Below, piece by piece: positions 10,885-27,468 of a DNA stretch of 28,811 nucleotides (positions within the stretch are counted from its first letter, which is position 1; each line of letters begins with the position of its first letter). The notes below the pieces were generated by a model. That model was not told the DNA's origin. It saw only the letters and a program-made list of their open reading frames with translations, and ran no database searches. This DNA is from a virus. Its lineage: Duplodnaviria > Caudoviricetes. Made by a program: the position numbers and the translations under genes. The stretch lies in the IMG/VR virus record IMGVR_UViG_3300037467_000973, positions 1 to 28,811 of that record, one strand, 5' to 3'.

Positions 10885-11177
10885 AGCCCGACGAGCTTCC
10901 CGACATGGTGGAAGATGAGATCCGCAGGGTTACCCTCAATCTCGCGGGCGCCGTTGGGGTGAACACGATCGACGATTGCGAAGTGACCTGTGACACGCTG
11001 ACCATCGGAACGCCGTCGATCAGCGGAACCTCGATCAGCTTCAACGTCACCGCGACAAACCCAGGAACGCATTACATCCTCGCCTCAGCCGACCTGAGCT
11101 CGCAGGAAACCGTCAAGGGATACATTCGGGCAAAGGTTGCCGGACAGCCTTGCACACAGACACGCGACTATGAATGA
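10875..11177 (+). CDS. Putative fibre-adaptor-like beta-sandwich virion protein
   Basis: ATG 10875 (3' part of ORF-track 10200..11177); beta-rich, 100 aa. Confidence 0.6.
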   Translation: MQLKPDELPDMVEDEIRRVTLNLAGAVGVNTIDDCEVTCDTLTIGTPSISGTSISFNVTATNPGTHYILASADLSSQETVKGYIRAKVAGQPCTQTRDYE

Positions 11178-11566
11178 TGGGCAGGCCCTCGCTTTACGAC
11201 CCCTCATATTGTGAGAGGGTCATCGAACTCGGCAAACAGGGAATGTCCGTTGTCGAGATGGCGTGCGAAATCGGGGTTAGCCGAAACACGCTAGAGACCA
11301 ATTGGCCTGCTGAGCATCCAGAGTTTCTGGAAGCCTTCGTGCGCGCGAAGGATGAATCGCAGGCGTGGTGGGAAAAGGCCGGTCGTGTCGGAATGGCCGG
11401 CAAGAACATCGACGCCGCGATCTGGTCGAGATCAATGGCGGCTCGGTTCCCGAACGACTGGCGCGAGACGAAGCGCAACGAGCACAGCGGCCCTGACGGC
11501 TCGCCGATCGCCACAACGCAGAGGATCGAGCGTGTCATCATCGACCCTGCAAATCCAGACGGCTAG
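11174..11566 (+). CDS. terS: Terminase small subunit
   Basis: MGRPSLYDPSYCERVIELG HTH, HPEFLEA, EHSGPDGSPI; directly upstream of TerL. Confidence 0.9.
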   Translation: MMGRPSLYDPSYCERVIELGKQGMSVVEMACEIGVSRNTLETNWPAEHPEFLEAFVRAKDESQAWWEKAGRVGMAGKNIDAAIWSRSMAARFPNDWRETKRNEHSGPDGSPIATTQRIERVIIDPANPDG

Positions 11567-19679: not shown

Positions 19680-20288
19680 ATGCCAGCAGGTGCAATTGGC
19701 GGCGCGCTCTTGGGCGGCGGCTCAATCCTTGGCGGTATCCTCGGCGGCAAGGGCGCGAAGAAGGCGGCCAAGGCCCAAGTTCAGCTTGGTCGCGAAGCCC
19801 TCGATCTGCAAAGGCAGATGTTCGAGGAGGGGCGCACCGATCTTGCGCCGTGGCGCGAAGCTGGCGGTCAGGCAATCGGACAGGGCCTCGCCATGCTCCA
19901 GCCCGGCTACGATTACACCGCCTCGCCTGGATATCAGTTTCGCTTCAACGAGGGTCAGCGGGCGGTAGATTCCTCCGCTGCTGCCAAGGGCATGTTGATG
20001 AGCGGCGGGACACTTAAAGATTTAACCCGTTTCGGACAGGGCGTGGCAGCGGCGGACTTCAACGACCAGTTCAATCGCGTGATGTCGGTTGCTGGCGGGG
20101 GACAGCAAGCGGCCACATCAACCGCCGGCCTCGGTCAGAACTATGCCAACTCTGCTTCTGGCATCCTCAACAACATCGGGCAGGCCAAGGCATCGGGTTA
20201 TGCTGGTCAGAACCAAGCCGTCCAGGGCACGCTCGGCAACCTCGCGGGACTCTATGGCATGGGCGCATTCAAAGGGTTGGGCTTCTAA
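19680..20288 (+). CDS. DNA ejection protein (gp7-like)
   Basis: Gly/Ala-rich; PGYQFRFNEG...SAAAKGMLMSGGTLKDLTRFGQG. Confidence 0.85.
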   Translation: MPAGAIGGALLGGGSILGGILGGKGAKKAAKAQVQLGREALDLQRQMFEEGRTDLAPWREAGGQAIGQGLAMLQPGYDYTASPGYQFRFNEGQRAVDSSAAAKGMLMSGGTLKDLTRFGQGVAAADFNDQFNRVMSVAGGGQQAATSTAGLGQNYANSASGILNNIGQAKASGYAGQNQAVQGTLGNLAGLYGMGAFKGLGF

Positions 20289-21026
20289 ATGGCGTTCGAT
20301 CCACAAGCTTTCGCCCCTGCCGACATCGTTGGGGCCTACGGCAAGGGCCTGCAAGTCCGCCAGATGCAGCAGGAGCAGGATAACAAGGCCCGCTTGGCCG
20401 ATCTGCTCCCGCAGGCGGTTCACGGCAATCAGCAGGCGATCGACCAGATTGCGCAGATCGACCCGCAGCTGTTCATGCATCTCGACGATCGGCAGAAGCA
20501 GCAGGCGCAGGCCGAGCTTCATGACGTTTCGAGCGCCGTCCGTTGGGCGCTAAGCGATCCGAACCAGAAGGCGCAGCGCTGGAATCAGGTTGTCGATTAC
20601 TACAGCCAGCACGTTCCACAGGTGGCGCAGTATCGCGATCACCCGGAGATGGCTGAAACCGCCCTGTTGCAGCTCGGGCAGATCGGCGAATACCTCAAAG
20701 GTGCCCAAGGCGGCGAACCGACCACATTCCAGCGGGACTACCAGTTCCTCCAGAGCAAAGACCCCAAGCTTGCCGATCAATATCTGCATCAGCACGCGGA
20801 AGGTGCTCCGCTCGTCGCGAACAACGGCGACGGCACGTTCACCATCATCCCCCGCGGCTATTCGGGCGGCGCTCAACCCTCGGCCAATATCCCGCAGGGC
20901 GCGATCGACTTTCTGAAGTCCAATCCCGCCCTCAAGAGCCAGTTCGACGAGAAGTATGGCCCAGGAGCAGCCGACAAAGTGCTAGGAGGTCAGATGGGCG
21001 CCGGCCCGTCTGGCGGCTTTCTCTAG
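20289..21026 (+). CDS. DNA ejection protein (gp20 position)
   Basis: Q/A-rich helical protein; C-terminal IPQGAIDFLKSNP...FDEKYGPGAA motif. Confidence 0.75.
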   Translation: MAFDPQAFAPADIVGAYGKGLQVRQMQQEQDNKARLADLLPQAVHGNQQAIDQIAQIDPQLFMHLDDRQKQQAQAELHDVSSAVRWALSDPNQKAQRWNQVVDYYSQHVPQVAQYRDHPEMAETALLQLGQIGEYLKGAQGGEPTTFQRDYQFLQSKDPKLADQYLHQHAEGAPLVANNGDGTFTIIPRGYSGGAQPSANIPQGAIDFLKSNPALKSQFDEKYGPGAADKVLGGQMGAGPSGGFL

Positions 21027-21366
21027 GGCATTTGACGCGATTATTCAGCAGGAGTCCGGCGGCAACGGGACGGCTGTGAGCAGCAAGGGCGCGCTCGGCT
21101 CGACGCAGATGCTCCCCGGAACCGCTCGGCTGATGGCTGACAAGCTCGGGCTTCCCTTTCGGCCCGATCTGCTGCGGTCCAACCAGCCAGAAGCGCTTCA
21201 ATATCAGCGGCGCCTTGGCGAGGCTTACTTCCAGCAGGGCTTGGACGAGACCGGCAATCTCGTGGACGCCTTGCATTATTACCACGGCGGCCCGGATCGT
21301 CGCCAGTGGGGACCGAAAACACGCGCTTACGCTCGGGCTATCATGGCTCGCATCGGGGGATATTAA
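21019..21366 (+). CDS. Lytic transglycosylase (SLT) domain lacking its own canonical start
   Basis: FSRAFDAIIQQESGGNGTAVSSKGALGSTQMLPGTA...ALHYYHGGP...TRAY; catalytic ES (21052-21057) lies upstream of first GTG (21076). Confidence 0.85.
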   Translation, partial: FSRAFDAIIQQESGGNGTAVSSKGALGSTQMLPGTARLMADKLGLPFRPDLLRSNQPEALQYQRRLGEAYFQQGLDETGNLVDALHYYHGGPDRRQWGPKTRAYARAIMARIGGY

Positions 21367-24104
21367 TGCCCAATCCGTTCGATCAGTTCGACCAGCCTTC
21401 GCAGGCTCCCGCGATGTCGGGGCCGGTGACGGTTGGCACTCCGCGTCCGGACAAGCCCGAACTCCGCCAGGTTGGCAACTCGCTTGGCCTCGTGGACAAG
21501 AATACCGGCCACTTCACTCCGACCTATACTCCGCCCAAAGACGAGACCGCGAAAGATCCCAACGGCACGCAAGGCATGGCGGCTGGCTTCTATGGTCGCG
21601 CGCTCTTCGCGAACAAGAAATATGGCGACGGCCTTCCGCCCCGCGATGCACTGTCGCAGGGCATCCTCGACGCCCTCCCGACGAGCATTTCAAACTCGCT
21701 CAGCGGGCATGACCGCCAGCTCGCCAATACATACGCCCGCGACTTCGTTGCCGCCACGCTCCGCAAGGAATCTGGCGCGGCGATCAGCGAGCAGGAGTAT
21801 CAAAACCAATACGTCCGCTACTTCCCGCAGCCCGGCGACTCGCCCGATACAATCAAGGCCAAGGCGCAGCTTCGCGAGACGGCCATTCAGTCTCTCCGCG
21901 ATCAGGCTGGGCCGGCGGCATCCTCGGCTGATGAAAACGTCCAGAAGATGCTTCAGGGCGACGCCAGCGGCTCGGATCGTGAGTTCGGAAACCACGACAG
22001 CCACGGTGAGCTGACGCCGGAACAGCAGGCCCGCGACCAACAGTTTATCGCGTCAAACCCGACGCCCGAGCAATATGCTGCATTTCTCGAAGGAATGCTC
22101 GGCAAGAAGGTCGATCACGCACTCGCGGCTGAACGCTTGAAGCTCACGCTGGCGGGCGGGGCGTACAATCCCGGTGTCGTCGATCCTCGTGTTCAGCAGC
22201 GCGTCGATCAGATGCAGCAGGAAGGTGGCGGTGGCGGCGCAGCATTCGTCGCTGGCGCGGCCGATGCTGCCGGCCTTGGGTTGTCGGATGAGTTCGGTGC
22301 CGGAGTCAGCGCTCTTGGGCAGTCGCTATCCGGTCAGGGATCGTTTGGCGATAATTACAACGTCGATCTCCAGGCCAATCGCCAGTATCAGCGCGGCCTT
22401 CAGAACGATAACCCGCTACCGTATCTCGGCGGGCAATTCGTTGGCGGCGCAGCCCTGCCTGTGGGTCGAGCGACGAGCCTTGCGGATCTGGCGAAAGCCG
22501 GTGTGGCCTACGGCGGAGCTTATGGCGTAGGCTCTGGCGAAGGCCTCAGTGGACGCCTGACGGGCGGTGTTACCGGCGCCGCTGCGGGCGGAGCGATCGG
22601 CGCTGCCACGGGCGGCCTCAGCCAGCTTTTGCGCGGCAAGCAAGCCGCCGCTGTCCCCGACTTGGTCGATCCGGTCAGCGGAAGACTGAATGAGCCGCTT
22701 GAGGCCATGAGTCCCGGCGGGCGCGTCGCTTCGGCCAACGATCTTGGAATCAACCTCCCAATGGGTGCTGCGACGGATCGTGGCGGGGCGATCATCGAAA
22801 AGGGGCTGGACAACCTCCCAGGCTCGGCCGGCGTGATGAATGACGCCCGCCGCACTGTCGAAGGTCAGGTTTCGGACGCGGCAGAGAATGTCGCAAGCAA
22901 GTTCGGTTCATCGCGCACGCTCAACGAGGCCGGTTCGGAGCTCCAGCGCGGAGCGATCGAGCGCAACGACCGTGCCGATGCGTTGATCACCAAGGCTTAC
23001 AACCGCATCCCGATCGCGGACACCGCCCCCGCTTCAAACTCCAACACTGTCGGCACGCTCCAGCAGCTCACTGGCCGCTTCGAGTCCAATCCTGAACTCG
23101 CCGGGATGGTCAAGGACCCGCGCCTCGAAGGCTACATGAACGCCATCCAGAAGGGTGGGCTTAGCTGGAAGGACATGAAGGACTTCCGCACGCTGATCGG
23201 CGAGAAGATCGGCGAGCTCAGGGTTGGCGAAGACAGCCGCACAAGCGACCTACGTTCGCTTTACGGCGCATTGTCCGAAGATATGCGGGCGACGGCCAGC
23301 GCTCAGGGCAACGGCGCACTGAAAGCCTTCGAGCGTGCGAACAGCCTCAACCGCGAGAACGAACAACTGGTCCAGGGCGCACTGACCCGCATCCTGGGCA
23401 AGGACGGCAATCTCGCGCCGGAAAAGGCGGCTGCGGCAGTCCAGGCGATGACCAAGGGCGGCAAGGCGACCGGGGACATCAGGACGCTTGCCCAGATCAA
23501 GGGCGCGACAGTCAAGAGCGGGGCCTGGGATGAAGTCGCGGGAACGCTGATCCGGCTCGGCGGACAGCCTGCTAACAGCCCCGGACGTTCGTTCGATCCG
23601 GGCACGTTCGTTCGCTGGTATGCCGACATGAGCGAGCCGGCGCGCAGGCTGCTGTTCAAGCCGGAGCTGCGCCAGACCCTCAACCAGTTCGTGGCGGTCA
23701 ACCAGCGCCTCGCTGGCTCGAACGCGCTTCGCAATACCTCGAACACGGTTCCGGGCTTCATCGGCACCGGATTCGCCGGGGGCGCGGGTATGGCGGCAGC
23801 GTCGGGCAATTTGAAGATGCTGCTGGCGATCGGCGCAGAGGCCGCGGCCAACTACGGCATGGCTAAGGTGTGGACCAATCCCGGTTTCGTCAAATGGGCC
23901 ACTGGATTTGCCAAGGCCAATTCGCAGGGCGCGGCGAGGGCGCAGATCGGACGGCTTGCGAAGCTCGCGACGACCAACCCGGAGTTGCGCGAGGGGCTGA
24001 TGGCGATCCAGCGCAAGCTGCTGGAATCGGCCAACGACAATTTCACACCGCGCGCTGTGGCCTCAGCTCCCGACCAGGGACAGCAGGACGAAAACCGCCC
24101 CTAG
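21366..24104 (+). CDS. Large DNA ejection protein (gp16 position)
   Basis: ATG 21366 MPNPFDQFD; LRKESGAAISEQEY...YFPQPGD; Gly/Ala-rich hydrophobic segments; 912 aa. Confidence 0.85.
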   Translation: MPNPFDQFDQPSQAPAMSGPVTVGTPRPDKPELRQVGNSLGLVDKNTGHFTPTYTPPKDETAKDPNGTQGMAAGFYGRALFANKKYGDGLPPRDALSQGILDALPTSISNSLSGHDRQLANTYARDFVAATLRKESGAAISEQEYQNQYVRYFPQPGDSPDTIKAKAQLRETAIQSLRDQAGPAASSADENVQKMLQGDASGSDREFGNHDSHGELTPEQQARDQQFIASNPTPEQYAAFLEGMLGKKVDHALAAERLKLTLAGGAYNPGVVDPRVQQRVDQMQQEGGGGGAAFVAGAADAAGLGLSDEFGAGVSALGQSLSGQGSFGDNYNVDLQANRQYQRGLQNDNPLPYLGGQFVGGAALPVGRATSLADLAKAGVAYGGAYGVGSGEGLSGRLTGGVTGAAAGGAIGAATGGLSQLLRGKQAAAVPDLVDPVSGRLNEPLEAMSPGGRVASANDLGINLPMGAATDRGGAIIEKGLDNLPGSAGVMNDARRTVEGQVSDAAENVASKFGSSRTLNEAGSELQRGAIERNDRADALITKAYNRIPIADTAPASNSNTVGTLQQLTGRFESNPELAGMVKDPRLEGYMNAIQKGGLSWKDMKDFRTLIGEKIGELRVGEDSRTSDLRSLYGALSEDMRATASAQGNGALKAFERANSLNRENEQLVQGALTRILGKDGNLAPEKAAAAVQAMTKGGKATGDIRTLAQIKGATVKSGAWDEVAGTLIRLGGQPANSPGRSFDPGTFVRWYADMSEPARRLLFKPELRQTLNQFVAVNQRLAGSNALRNTSNTVPGFIGTGFAGGAGMAAASGNLKMLLAIGAEAAANYGMAKVWTNPGFVKWATGFAKANSQGAARAQIGRLAKLATTNPELREGLMAIQRKLLESANDNFTPRAVASAPDQGQQDENRP

Positions 24105-24179
24105 CGACCACGCGCGCCACCGCCGCGGCGTCAGAAGCCCGACGACCAACAGCAACAGCCCGACTTGCCAGAGCTTCAC
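24063..24179 (-). CDS. 38-aa membrane protein, candidate superinfection exclusion factor
   Basis: Hand translation MKLWQVGLLLLVVGLLTPRRWRAWSLGAVFVLLSLVGS; candidate promoter TTGGTC-17-TAGTCA ending 6 nt before GTG. Confidence 0.6.
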   Translation of the reverse strand: MKLWQVGLLLLVVGLLTPRRWRAWSLGAVFVLLSLVGS

Positions 24180-24206
24180 CAGCCCTGACTAGCAAAGGAA
24201 TGCCTA

Positions 24207-24845
24207 GTGACCAAGGTTCTTTGGTCCTCGTTTCAGCAGCTCTTCGATGAATACGGAGACGTGCTGAACGGGGGCAAAATCCAGACCGACGCCGGCGGCA
24301 CGACCACCCCCAAGGCGACCTATACCGACTCCACCGGGAATGTCGCCAACGCGAACCCGATCGTCCTTTCGGCATCGGGCCGCAAGACTGGCGGCATCTG
24401 GGTCAACAAGGGCGAGGCTTACAAGTTCACGCTGCTTGCCAGCGACGACACGGAACTCGACGTGATCGACAATGCGGTGGTCGGGGAAGTTGCGACCACG
24501 GATACCCAGCGGCTTCTCATTTCGATGACCTATTGCGGCACTCCCGGCGCGCAGGGCTTCATGGGCGGCGCTGAAATCCTCAACACCGCGACCATTGCCG
24601 TGGACTTCGATGGGGCATCGGGCAGTGTCCAGACCAACCCGGCAGCCGATTACGTCATCTCAATCAAGAAGAACGGGTCCGAAGTCGGCACGGTTACAAT
24701 CGACGCGTCCGGCGTGTTCACATTCGCGACCTCGGGCGGGGCAACCGTCCCCCTGGCCTTCGGCGATACGCTTGCGTTCATCGGCCCCGATTCCATCGGA
24801 ACGGCGGCCGACTTCACCATCACTCTCGCGGCAGACCTCGCATGA
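24207..24845 (+). CDS. Tail fibre/spike attachment protein
   Basis: GDVLNGGKI...AGGTTTPKATYTD...ANANPIVLSASGR N-terminus typical of podophage fibre anchors. Confidence 0.78.
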   Translation: MTKVLWSSFQQLFDEYGDVLNGGKIQTDAGGTTTPKATYTDSTGNVANANPIVLSASGRKTGGIWVNKGEAYKFTLLASDDTELDVIDNAVVGEVATTDTQRLLISMTYCGTPGAQGFMGGAEILNTATIAVDFDGASGSVQTNPAADYVISIKKNGSEVGTVTIDASGVFTFATSGGATVPLAFGDTLAFIGPDSIGTAADFTITLAADLA

Positions 24846-25834
24846 CGATCCTGACCGCCGGAGGCGAAATGGGATCGTTCACCCCATCCGATAACACCGT
24901 CTATGAAAGCACGAACGGCGGGGGGTTCAACAGCGCGTTCGCCCGTTGCGCGATCTACTGCAATAATAACGGCTCCTACGCGGAGTCCGAGGTCTTCACC
25001 GCTACGGCTGATTTCTGGCTGCACATCGAGATTACGAATACCTCGGCCTTCAACACCGATGGCACGTATCAAAAGCTCATCGAGTTTCTGGATAGCGGCG
25101 GAACCGCCCGCGTCAGACTGCTGGCGAACTCTCCTGCCGACTCCAGCGGCAACTGGAAGATGGAGTATTGGAACGGCAGCGCGTGGACGATCGCCGGTTC
25201 GGCCTACGCGGCAACAGTCAACACGCTCCAGACCTTCGACATTCACATTGTCTCAAACACCGCTAGCGGAACGGTGGCGTCCTACATCTCGGGAACGCAG
25301 AAAAGCTTGGCGACGGTCGATCTTTCGGCCTTCAGCGGCATCGCCCAGTTCCGCGTGTGGGGCAAGACGGTCGGCATCGCTGTTCCGGTTTATTACAGTC
25401 AGGCCATCGCAGCCAACGAGTCCACCATCGGTTGGCGCCTGACCACGGTTCCGCCCACGTCCGGAGGGGCAACAACCGACTGGACGGGCACTTATGCCGA
25501 GATTGACGAGATCACCTATTCGGACGCGGATTTCATCAACTCGGCAACGGTGAATCAGGTCGAGCTCGTCGCGCATTCGACCACGATCCCATCGGGCTAT
25601 CTGGTTCGCGGCGTCGCCGTGACTGCGCGTGGCCGGCGGTCGTCGGGATCTGGACCGCAACACCTCCAGCTGGCCGTTAGGTCGGGCGGAACGGTTTATG
25701 TCTCCGGCTCAAAGTCGCTGGGGCTAGGCTATCAGCCGTTCACCAACGTCTGGGAAGATGACCCGGCCACCAGCGCGGACTTCACCACCAGCGCGATTAC
25801 GTCCCTGCAATATGGCGTGAAGAGCATTACCTGA
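24842..25834 (+). CDS. Tail-associated beta-rich protein
   Basis: S/T/G/aromatic-rich 330 aa in fibre cluster. Confidence 0.7.
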   Translation: MTILTAGGEMGSFTPSDNTVYESTNGGGFNSAFARCAIYCNNNGSYAESEVFTATADFWLHIEITNTSAFNTDGTYQKLIEFLDSGGTARVRLLANSPADSSGNWKMEYWNGSAWTIAGSAYAATVNTLQTFDIHIVSNTASGTVASYISGTQKSLATVDLSAFSGIAQFRVWGKTVGIAVPVYYSQAIAANESTIGWRLTTVPPTSGGATTDWTGTYAEIDEITYSDADFINSATVNQVELVAHSTTIPSGYLVRGVAVTARGRRSSGSGPQHLQLAVRSGGTVYVSGSKSLGLGYQPFTNVWEDDPATSADFTTSAITSLQYGVKSIT

Positions 25835-26007
25835 TGGCTGACCAGGCAGAAGTTACTAAAGCCGTCGCTCATGTGGCTACAGGCCAGGTGAGCGACAGCG
25901 CAGCCGTCTCGAAGGTGGTTGCCTACCTGATCCTCGTTCCTGGCGATTCCGGTCCTGACACGTCGAACAGACAGGGCCACGTCCACACCCAGATAATCCG
26001 GAGATAG
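25834..26007 (+). CDS. Small tail-associated protein (57 aa)
   Basis: Hand translation MADQAEVTKAVAHVATGQVSDSAAVSKVVAYLILVPGDS...; TGATG coupling; exactly fills the gap. Confidence 0.7.
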   Translation: MADQAEVTKAVAHVATGQVSDSAAVSKVVAYLILVPGDSGPDTSNRQGHVHTQIIRR

Positions 26008-26008
26008 C

Positions 26009-26806
26009 ATGGCGCTCATCGTCGCTGATCGCGTGGCCGAGACCTCGACCACGACCGGGACAGGTGCGCTTACCCTTGCCGCTGCGATCACGGGATTTCG
26101 GCGGTTCTCGGCCGTCTGCTCGACCAATGACACAGCCTACTACGCCATCATCGCCGTGGACGGAAACGGCAATCCGTCAGGCGACTGGGAATGCGGACTG
26201 GGAACATACTCGTCGGCCAACACCCTTACTCGCACAACGCCGCAAGCCTCGACCAATTCTAACGCGGCGGTGAATTTCGGTGCCGGCACGAAATACGTTT
26301 ATCTATCATCGACAGCAGCGCATCTGGCAACCTTGCTCCCACCTAGCGCCGCAGTTGCTTCGGATCTCAATACCGGGACGAACACCACCAAATTTGTAAC
26401 CCCTGACGCTTTGGCCGGAGCCAACCTCGGCACTCCCACCATCACCCTTCTTGTCAGTGACCCTAACGGATCAGCGATCACGACTGGCGACGGCAAGGCT
26501 TACTGGCGGGTGCCTTCGACGCTGAACGGAATGAACCTGGTCGGCGTAGCGGCGCACGTCACAACGGTCTCATCGTCGGGGATTCCGACCATCCAGATCG
26601 CGAACGTAACCGACAGTGTGGACATGCTTTCGACCAAGCTGACGATCGATGCCAGTGAGAAGGACAGCAGCACCGCCGCGACGGCGGCGGTGATCGACAC
26701 CGCCCACGATGATGTTGCGACCGGCGACGAACTCCGGATCGACATTGACGTTGCCGGGACCGGAGCCAAGGGCCTCATGGTCGAGATGCAGTTCCAGCTT
26801 CCATGA
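26009..26806 (+). CDS. Tail fibre protein
   Basis: MALIVADRVAETSTTTGTG...WECGLGTY...LTRT...VNFGAGTKYV; TTKFVTP knuckle motif. Confidence 0.8.
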   Translation: MALIVADRVAETSTTTGTGALTLAAAITGFRRFSAVCSTNDTAYYAIIAVDGNGNPSGDWECGLGTYSSANTLTRTTPQASTNSNAAVNFGAGTKYVYLSSTAAHLATLLPPSAAVASDLNTGTNTTKFVTPDALAGANLGTPTITLLVSDPNGSAITTGDGKAYWRVPSTLNGMNLVGVAAHVTTVSSSGIPTIQIANVTDSVDMLSTKLTIDASEKDSSTAATAAVIDTAHDDVATGDELRIDIDVAGTGAKGLMVEMQFQLP

Positions 26807-27468
26807 TAATCCAGGCGGTCAAGTGCTTCTCAGGCAGTGGTAGTGCGGCGCCTGACGCCAACACCCTCTGGCTATTCCGCTACAATGTTTCACCGCCAAC
26901 CGATGAAATCACTAGCTTTGCCCTGACGTTGGCCGGCAACGCTACGGTGGACACGACCAACCACTGGATGACGTGCGACGGGGCGGGCGACTGGGCATCA
27001 ACCACCAACACGACCGGATTCAATATTCCCTCTGGCGACTTCACGCTGGAAATGCACATGCAAGTTCCGTCGGGCCAAGTCGGCGGATCGGTCTCGCGAC
27101 GGCCTGGGATCAACTCCGGTTCTTGGGCATGGTTTCACAATGGCAACGGAACGATAGATTGCTATTTCGACAATATCTCCGGATCTCCCCTGATCAATTT
27201 CGGAGCAGGTGCCGCGGACAATACGATGAAGCACTATGCTCTCGTGCGTTCGGGCAACACTTGGACGACATACATCAATGGAACTCAGAAGGGGACAGTG
27301 ACAAACTCCGGAACGATCGGCACTGCGCTCTCCACGTTCGGCATCGGGACCGATTTCTTCAATGCCGGAGCCCGCGATATTTCAGGCAACTTCGGGCGGT
27401 TGAAATGCTCCAATATCGCCCGCTGGACCTCTGGGGGCTTCACCCCGCCCGCGATCACCGACGTTTAA
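26803..27468 (+). CDS. LamG/concanavalin A-like receptor-binding protein
   Basis: GDFTLEM...HYALVRSGNTWTTYING...SNIARWTSGGFTPP. Confidence 0.85.
   Translation: MIIQAVKCFSGSGSAAPDANTLWLFRYNVSPPTDEITSFALTLAGNATVDTTNHWMTCDGAGDWASTTNTTGFNIPSGDFTLEMHMQVPSGQVGGSVSRRPGINSGSWAWFHNGNGTIDCYFDNISGSPLINFGAGAADNTMKHYALVRSGNTWTTYINGTQKGTVTNSGTIGTALSTFGIGTDFFNAGARDISGNFGRLKCSNIARWTSGGFTPPAITDV

Follow-up and report, generated by a model that had tools for sequence, protein, structure and literature searches.

A gene in the ejection module of a virus record (IMG/VR IMGVR_UViG_3300037467_000973) ends at a stop codon next to a lytic transglycosylase (SLT) domain that has no start codon of its own and lies in the +1 reading frame. 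How is this domain translated? A preliminary description of the same DNA had proposed that a +1 recoding cassette fuses it to the upstream protein. The window is the whole stretch of DNA that was analysed, 28,811 nucleotides long, and all positions refer to it unless a locus is named. From comparison of the window with related loci we conclude that a programmed +1 ribosomal frameshift very probably gives two forms of a predicted ejection protein, a short form of 245 aa and a predicted long form of 358 aa. We put the probability of this reading at about 0.88.

Results

The 28.8-kb virus record contains a P22-type morphogenesis module and comes from a P22-like podophage. Profile matches give the order terminase, P22-like portal, coat, gp10-like head closure, needle and gp7-like ejection gene. 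The gp7-like gene (Table 1) also matches Pfam P22_gp7 with an E of 8e-4, which is under the family cut-off. The product of the next gene is predicted, from gene order alone, to be a gp20-like ejection protein: the gene is placed between the gp7-like and gp16-like genes of a P22-type module, the gp16 label itself being positional. This product has no match in Pfam, PHROG or PDB, and a single-protein search with it returned one relative only. The 912-aa third gene starts with an ATG that shares bases with the stop of the SLT frame (TAATG). It is matched by none of five hydrolase profiles, and across 19680–24200 the sole wall-hydrolase match of the five is the SLT +1 frame. Four tail-region genes follow the ejection module at 24207–27468, one of them with a concanavalin-A-like domain (PF13385).

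Table 1. Features at the predicted recoding locus, in positions of the window
Feature	Position	Strand	Basis
gp7-like first ejection protein gene	19680..20288	+	phrog_598 'DNA ejection', E 1.3e-44
Predicted second ejection-protein gene (gp20 position), 245 aa, frame 0 of the cassette	20289..21026	+	ORF; gene order
Internal Shine-Dalgarno-like AGGAGGT	20984..20990	+	includes AGGAG 20984-20988
11-bp RNA hairpin, interval between SD and shift site	20989..21014	+	folding; covariation in relatives
Predicted E-site codon GGC	21015..21017	+	base before UUU never U in 154 +1 junctions
Predicted +1 shift site UUU-C (tRNA-Phe, UUU to UUC)	21018..21021	+	TTT followed by C in 144 and by T in 10, n=154
Lytic transglycosylase domain (SLT) without start codon, +1 frame	21019..21366	+	PF01464; PDB Slt structures
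Frame-0 stop TAG, two codons past UUU, closing the 245-aa short form	21024..21026	+	stop within 4 codons in 135/154 relatives
Predicted third ejection-protein gene (gp16 position), 912 aa	21366..24104	+	gene order alone; no match to a named profile

The +1 ORF matches the Pfam SLT profile (PF01464) with 35.7 bits against a cut-off of 21.3, and Slt structures are matched in the PDB. Its catalytic-type Glu-Ser pair at 21052–21057 is invariant in the SLT alignment (A1), and the domain is predicted to act as a lytic transglycosylase on peptidoglycan. The motif IIQQESGG stands at 21040–21063, the earliest ATG, GTG or TTG in the SLT frame is the GTG at 21076, and upstream the frame is closed by TAG 20983–20985. 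Of eleven strain differences within the SLT frame, ten are synonymous, two of them 5' of GTG 21076, and one is non-synonymous. Because the synonymous bias includes these two changes, the part 5' of this GTG is selected as +1-frame protein as well. An indel or sequencing error, for which the preliminary description had advised checking raw reads, was not borne out. A contig from run X2 spans 20700–21338 with 0 differences and 0 gaps, and gap-free contigs across the junction were also obtained from runs X4 (20885–21044) and X5 (20930–21044), while run X3 gave no long contig over it.

The signal itself comprises 37 bases at the gene end, from GGAGG over the 11-bp hairpin to UUU-C. The gene closes with GGC UUU CUC UAG, and the +1-frame SLT domain comes after it. 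All coordinates of the preliminary description were re-checked and proved correct. The conserved core of the Shine-Dalgarno (SD) sequence, GGAGG at 20985–20989, is read in frame as Gly-Gly codons, and its last G doubles as base 1 of the stem. TTT 21018–21020 is codon 244 of the ORF 20289–21026; the overlapping TTC is at 21019–21021, with CTC TAG next. The hairpin that had been proposed is the stem of both the MFE and the centroid structures, and folding 43 nt gives a centroid of −21.8 kcal/mol. With 61 nt its z is −3.85 and 0/200 shuffles are as stable; for 121 nt around the hairpin z is only −1.22 (27/200 shuffles). Four weak Rfam 15 matches (E 1.4–6.6) in 20700–21600 of the window do not cover the cassette, and four related loci have no Rfam 15 match. 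An ATG absent from the preliminary description, at 20994–20996, lies in frame 0 within the stem, 4 nt past GGAGG; relatives mostly have ACG or unrelated bases at this place. If this ATG were used, the same shift could yield free SLT.

Related junctions were recovered in several ways. Among 14 SLT relatives, eight have the same layout with differing ends of the upstream protein, three are in-frame fusions without the cassette and three are distant. A pattern of SD and stem that does not require TTT gave 120 matches (99 distinct) in viral sequences. The loop is 7 nt long in 90 of the 120, and in 70 of the 99 distinct matches TTTY follows exactly 4 nt past the stem. All 96 SD-stem-TTTY matches in the examined loci are in phase with GGA. 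As a control, prokaryote genomes were searched with a looser pattern; the phases of the matches were mixed (52/27/45), and one of 121 loci was a true case. The other prokaryote matches are mostly chance or terminator-like hairpins; the true cassette belongs to Qipengyuania L222 (L222 / L263), an isolate in which a chromosomal copy precedes an M15-type +1 ORF, and this is the only chromosomal copy found. When the GAYG/CGTC-stem pattern was searched in 401 genomes of the order of Qipengyuania, one carrier was obtained, the starting genome itself.

The domains found in the +1 frame behind the cassette are SLT, peptidase M15 and the NNPG family. Some freshwater M15-like domains have no Pfam match and were assigned by motif. 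The predicted fold of the NNPG family resembles the catalytic domain of the Enc34 endolysin (Foldseek E 8e-4, TM 0.69), and the NNPG motif sometimes comes immediately after Phe. SLT, peptidase-M15 and the predicted Enc34-like muramidase domains, which represent three unrelated wall-hydrolase folds, are, as judged from sequence, interchangeable behind the cassette.

A motif-blind set was anchored on four hydrolase alignments and held 281 loci, or 258 distinct junctions after removal of 23 duplicates. The domain is internal or N-terminal in 79 of the 258, one of which has a chance cassette match. The 179 C-terminal domains divide into 159 +1-split, 11 long in-frame fusions, three −1 splits (one a partial match) and six edge cases; these proportions are enriched, the query profiles having been built from cassette-bearing loci, and the loci are related, so that the counts are not independent events. 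Removal of the weak match L403 reduced the +1-split set from 159 to 158. The 154 +1 junctions with an exact GGAGG include 133 distinct cassettes and 117 peptides, and their upstream proteins form 86 clusters at 50% identity and nine at 30%. By a fixed rule, all examined loci together contain 208 distinct +1 junctions with 171 cassette sequences.

A second set was anchored on gp7: 80 loci, less 16 duplicates and 18 incomplete ones, left 46 that are distinct and complete. A +1 hydrolase is present in 16/16 of these loci with a cassette, as compared to 0/30 without one; five of the 30 cassette-less loci have a hydrolase in frame inside the gene. Among cassette-less gp20-like genes (L264–L343), several end like the motif preceding the cassette of the window (L303, L305). 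As these genes end in similar short motifs, the comparison suggests that cassette and hydrolase were added at the natural C-terminus of gp20-like genes.

In L463 (about 1440–1510) the hairpin and TTTC are kept, the SD is GGGGG and the SLT frame is open for 244 codons upstream; this locus is either a fixed fusion or an assembly error. At L002:3340–3630 a domain of about 95 aa without a Pfam match comes after SLT, and a similar-looking stretch starts the post-gp20 gene in L305. The in-frame linkers preceding SLT in L459 and L499 resemble the end of this domain.

Conservation of the signal is strong. An exact GGAGG (Gly-Gly) occurs in 154 of the 158 +1-split junctions, 27, 30 or 33 nt (21/121/12) before the in-frame TTT; in the other four the SD is a variant (GGGGG, CGAGG or GGAGA), and stem and TTTY are retained. 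By comparison, 65 of 648 Gly-Gly pairs elsewhere begin with GGA. The phase of GGAGG matches the upstream gene in 154/159 occurrences, and the cassette peptide is conserved only as GG...F (117 variants). A pyrimidine follows TTT in 154/154 junctions as compared to 92/307 control TTT codons, TTT accounting for 307 of the 1067 Phe codons elsewhere. The base before TTT is never T in the 154 (elsewhere 45/307), and 153 of them have C or G there. Of the 154, 10 have UUU-U, and in each of these the fourth U opens a stop codon (UUU-stop). A sense codon occupies the A site in the other 144; Pro (CCN) is found in 76 and Arg (CGN) in 47, the window has CUC, and there is no conserved rare A-site codon among the 154.

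The stem is supported by covariation. In register 1 (71 sequences) 95.0% of positions are paired with 103 double changes, and in register 2 (31 sequences) 100% with 62 double changes; sequences were first assigned to registers by best pairing, which favours the paired percentage and not the double changes. None of 500 shuffles reaches either register, and slid stems are 17–67% paired. The hairpin has a median z of −3.4 in the +1 junctions as compared to 0.03 for the 40 nt downstream, and no 3' stimulator was found in the +1 loci. With the hairpin folded, the gap from SD to UUU is 4–6 unpaired nt in 139/154. The preliminary description had predicted that homologues would show a conserved SD-hairpin-TTTC-stop with stem covariation. 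We find SD-hairpin-UUU-Y conserved with covarying stems, in a fixed phase and free of indels. The SD-hairpin-UUU part of that proposal holds; the signal is not tied to SLT, other domains being found as well, and the adjacent stop is not required.

Two kinds of variant loci were found. Eight inverted loci (L451, L348, L350, L427, L433, L434, L572, L585) keep SD, stem and UUU-Y, with the hydrolase encoded in frame 0. A stop closes their +1 frame within 1–4 codons in 8/8, as compared to 8/154 for the comparable frame of ordinary loci. The +1 stop looks newly selected, because a stop inherited from the ordinary layout would sit in the −1 frame. Two of the inverted loci, from related phages, share one arrangement on separate contigs, and this speaks against an error of assembly. 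Homologues that are simple in-frame fusions had been named in the preliminary description as evidence against recoding; such fusions are a minority, and eight of them, the inverted loci, retain the cassette with the +1 frame soon closed.

Seven distinct −1 loci (L470 (=L623), L477, L626, L631, L633, L635, L636) have an SLT or M15 domain in the −1 frame. They have a C_CCU_UUY heptamer where +1 loci have a non-U base before UUU, and their hairpins are weaker, −3 to −7 kcal/mol as compared to the +1 median of −13.3. The first two served to build a pattern that recovered the other five, whose short GGC/GCC stem is thus present by construction; the scan with this pattern gave 17 matches, of which 11 were unrelated. 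No 3' stimulator is seen at the −1 loci (z −1.3 to +1.7). Both variants, as read from their sequences, argue for real slippage.

One carrier is a cultured phage. In cyanophage Pam1 (ON014753, L615:11173–11515) the cassette ends gp14 (record position 11173 onward), and the end motif of gp14 resembles that of the window's gene, with the same cassette next. The Pam1 +1 ORF (record positions 11204–11515) is 51% identical over 91 residues to an M15-type domain of the hydrolase set. The site is UUU-U without a stop, an exception to the rule that UUU-U is UUU-stop. Annotated gp15 (49 aa, with a late Met) is the tail of a 103-codon +1 ORF, and the annotation misses its N-terminal half. According to the accessible part of the published work (PMC9382816), gp14 is annotated as P22 translocase-like (probability 0.88) and is present in virions; in its Table S2 gp14 is marked as found by MS, gp15 is unmarked and no protein of less than 140 aa is marked. 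We infer that the database of that MS search probably lacked the full +1 ORF. The unmarked gp15 points to low abundance and to absence in Pam1 virions equally well.

Further searches for carriers were negative within their scope. In 17 annotated phage regions (including 12 of 44 gp10 relatives) a coding-strand cassette was present in Pam1 only. In Pam5, three opposite-strand matches were rejected as chance. Blastn with four cassettes against GenBank phages gave no convincing carrier (in one search, among 20 of 261 records listed), nor did tblastn with two M15-type domains yield a carrier.

Discussion

Our results support the proposed +1 recoding: the signal is conserved in 154/158 junctions, its phase is fixed, the stems covary and the variants fit slippage. 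In the model that we prefer, UUU would occupy the P site and GGC the E site when the hairpin, just unwound, refolds at the mRNA exit. Refolding would loop out about 25 nt and bring GGAGG to within a few unpaired bases of the shift site, where prfB has its SD. The SD:anti-SD duplex and the hairpin would then jointly push peptidyl-tRNA-Phe from UUU to UUC/UUU in the +1 frame. This amounts to prfB-like slippage of a single tRNA-Phe in the P site, with a distant SD carried to the E site by the hairpin.

We chose this mechanism because folding leaves 4–6 nt between SD and UUU and because of published effects of spacing and of hairpins. In the accessible text of PMC5009743, a stimulatory SD is 3 nt from the site for +1 shifts and 9–14 nt for −1 shifts. 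According to the available part of PMC6321510, a stable hairpin adjacent to the E site enhances +1 shifting by 70S ribosomes in vitro and reduces −1 shifting; its effect is about 60% of the +1 stimulation by an SD and is seen only without RF2. Whether the hairpin bridges the SD or the two act one after the other is a finer question, on which we lean towards bridging. The direction seen at the −1 loci fits a longer effective SD spacing.

Some observations speak against the frameshift model. The A-site codon is a sense codon in 144/154, whereas the in vitro effect of a hairpin required the absence of RF2. Pam1 gp15 is unmarked in the proteomics. Finally, an ATG (63) or GTG/TTG (27) precedes the catalytic motif in many of the 153 relatives. 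The remaining 63 have no ATG, GTG or TTG there, which favours the frameshift.

The start codons of these relatives bear on separate initiation, in which looping out of the hairpin brings the SD to a start. A free hydrolase would then begin at UUC, at a near-cognate codon or at an ATG further downstream, or else ribosomes would re-initiate past the frame-0 stop. A hairpin brings an SD near the start codon in T4 genes 25 and 38. Such initiation calls for a strong SD and for a hairpin that reduces the spacing; both are present, as is an ATG before the catalytic motif in those 63 relatives. The preliminary description had likewise taken an ordinary ATG before the ES motif as evidence against recoding. 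However, these ATGs are scattered 3–21 codons from Phe and 0/63 have an SD core 4–16 nt upstream; UUC/UUU is the one +1 codon that is conserved, and the Met of relatives aligns with the Phe of the window in the SLT alignment. Initiation also gives no reason for SD and UUU to stay in phase with the upstream gene (154/159 for GGAGG). At the inverted loci a +1 start would yield 1–4 residues, and the −1 loci are left unexplained too. The inverted loci favour a shift over initiation, because an initiation signal would be useless there, whereas a shift gives the same pair of short and long products with the default reversed. We consider separate initiation improbable.

Transcriptional slippage stimulated by the hairpin, with RNA polymerase omitting one base at a short T run past a terminator-like hairpin, would give the same fusion, and a hairpin followed by Ts does look like a weak terminator. 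Stem-loop-mediated slippage of this kind is said to have been recorded by Penno in 2015. It uses a long homopolymeric site, and codon phase is irrelevant to it. The T run here is just 3–4 long, and neither an SD nor a codon phase would be required, yet both are kept and the next base is always a pyrimidine, which makes this explanation very improbable. There is an equally slim chance that other recoding leads to the same fusion, either by a short translational bypass, in which ribosomes hop across the hairpin from one Gly codon to another, or by a −2 slip. Gly codons are found on both sides of the stem, and T4 gene 60 bypassing also involves a hairpin and an SD (PMC5009743, in its accessible part). 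But there is no stop after GGA and no conserved matched landing codon in the +1 frame; for a −2 slip, the C or G before UUU in 153/154 blocks re-pairing; and UUU-Y would be unnecessary for both. In-frame SLT domains inside ejection proteins do exist (L009–L011; Caulobacter phages), but a sequencing error or a decayed in-frame fusion is hardly credible given three other runs without an indel, 208 distinct +1 junctions and the synonymous bias in the SLT frame.

Having weighed these explanations, we return to the programmed +1 frameshift and compare it with known systems. Like prfB, the cassette has a 5' internal SD, would use re-pairing of a single P-site tRNA on the overlapping +1 codon and has no 3' structure; its 10 UUU-stop cases share the prfB layout. 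The differences are several. In the cassette the SD is 27–33 nt before the P codon with a covarying hairpin between, in prfB it is at 3 nt; tRNA-Phe would slip on UUU-Y instead of Leu on CUU-U. The A-site codon is sense in 144/154 and stop in 10/154, so release factor would not exert general control, and the predicted role is a product ratio, whereas prfB serves autoregulation. As far as can be read from sequence, the cassette would work like prfB, yet it is not a member of that class, since it departs from it in linear SD spacing and in the A-site stop.

The shift site of influenza PA-X reportedly reads UCC_UUU_CGU. The same tRNA-Phe slip at UUU-C is proposed here, the cassette having UUU-C in 144/154 and UUU-U in 10. 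The UUU-C sites of PA-X and amalgavirus are, in the accessible text of PMC5009743, eukaryotic, without an evident stimulator and of very low efficiency. The cassette differs in having a conserved SD and hairpin, in using bacterial ribosomes and in having a CGN A-site codon in only 47/144. Engineered upstream-hairpin stimulators (Huang, Cho, Chang 2018, PMC6321510, as far as its text was available) are similar in that a hairpin on the E-site side favours +1 and disfavours −1 shifting, and the strong hairpin of +1 loci as compared to the weak one of −1 loci fits this effect on direction. In those reporters the hairpin takes the place of the SD and depends on a hungry stop codon, whereas the natural cassette keeps SD and hairpin in series.

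Lambda G/GT, the T7/T3 capsid protein 10B and Listeria phage PSA also make two forms of a virion protein per gene, with swappable C-terminal domains and a direction of shift that varies among relatives (PMC5009743, accessible part). The cassette differs from them in that it targets an ejection gene, adds an enzyme and has SD plus hairpin as stimulator. The accessible part of that account of frameshifts in phage structural genes contains no description of such a cassette. Muralytic domains are described as moving between ejection proteins, from T7 gp16 to homologues of gp15, and P22-like phages are said to have no virion muralytic domain (PMC8954989, in the part available). T7 gp16-type domains are constitutive and in frame, whereas here the hydrolase would sit on a fraction of the subunits. 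Caulobacter phages have in-frame SLT domains within ejection proteins. In the literature on recoding and on P22 ejection proteins, covered mostly outside subscription journals, we did not find a description of the element. The recoding cassette is real and widespread, and probably undescribed so far.

P22 gp20 is described as the channel segment that spans peptidoglycan (bioRxiv 10.64898/2026.09.03.749273, in the part available), and about 30 copies are injected according to the accessible text of PMC8402733. The predicted lytic transglycosylase of the long form would open the host cell wall during DNA injection, and the ratio of short to long form may set the number of enzyme-bearing subunits in the ejection channel.

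Conclusions

Few bacterial +1 frameshifts have a defined stimulator, with prfB as the model, and the cassette would be a widespread second class. Tentatively, and with somewhat more doubt than belief, we propose a portable bidirectional recoding device in which a co-translationally refolding hairpin sets the effective distance from SD to P site. With a strong stem, shifting would be +1 and need neither a stop nor a rare codon; with a frayed stem and C_CCU_UUY it would be −1. Phages could in this way plug any of three wall-hydrolase folds, in either polarity, onto a defined share of the subunits of the ejection channel.

About 170 natural sequence variants, together with natural controls (+1, inverted, −1), make the role of 5' duplexes in the direction of slippage testable, and the cassette offers a part of 34–37 bases for protein fusions of fixed ratio in bacteria. 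For podophages the finding means that a wall-lytic domain may be hidden behind a truncating annotation, as in Pam1 gp15. It suggests that the stoichiometry of enzyme-bearing ejection-channel subunits is under selection.
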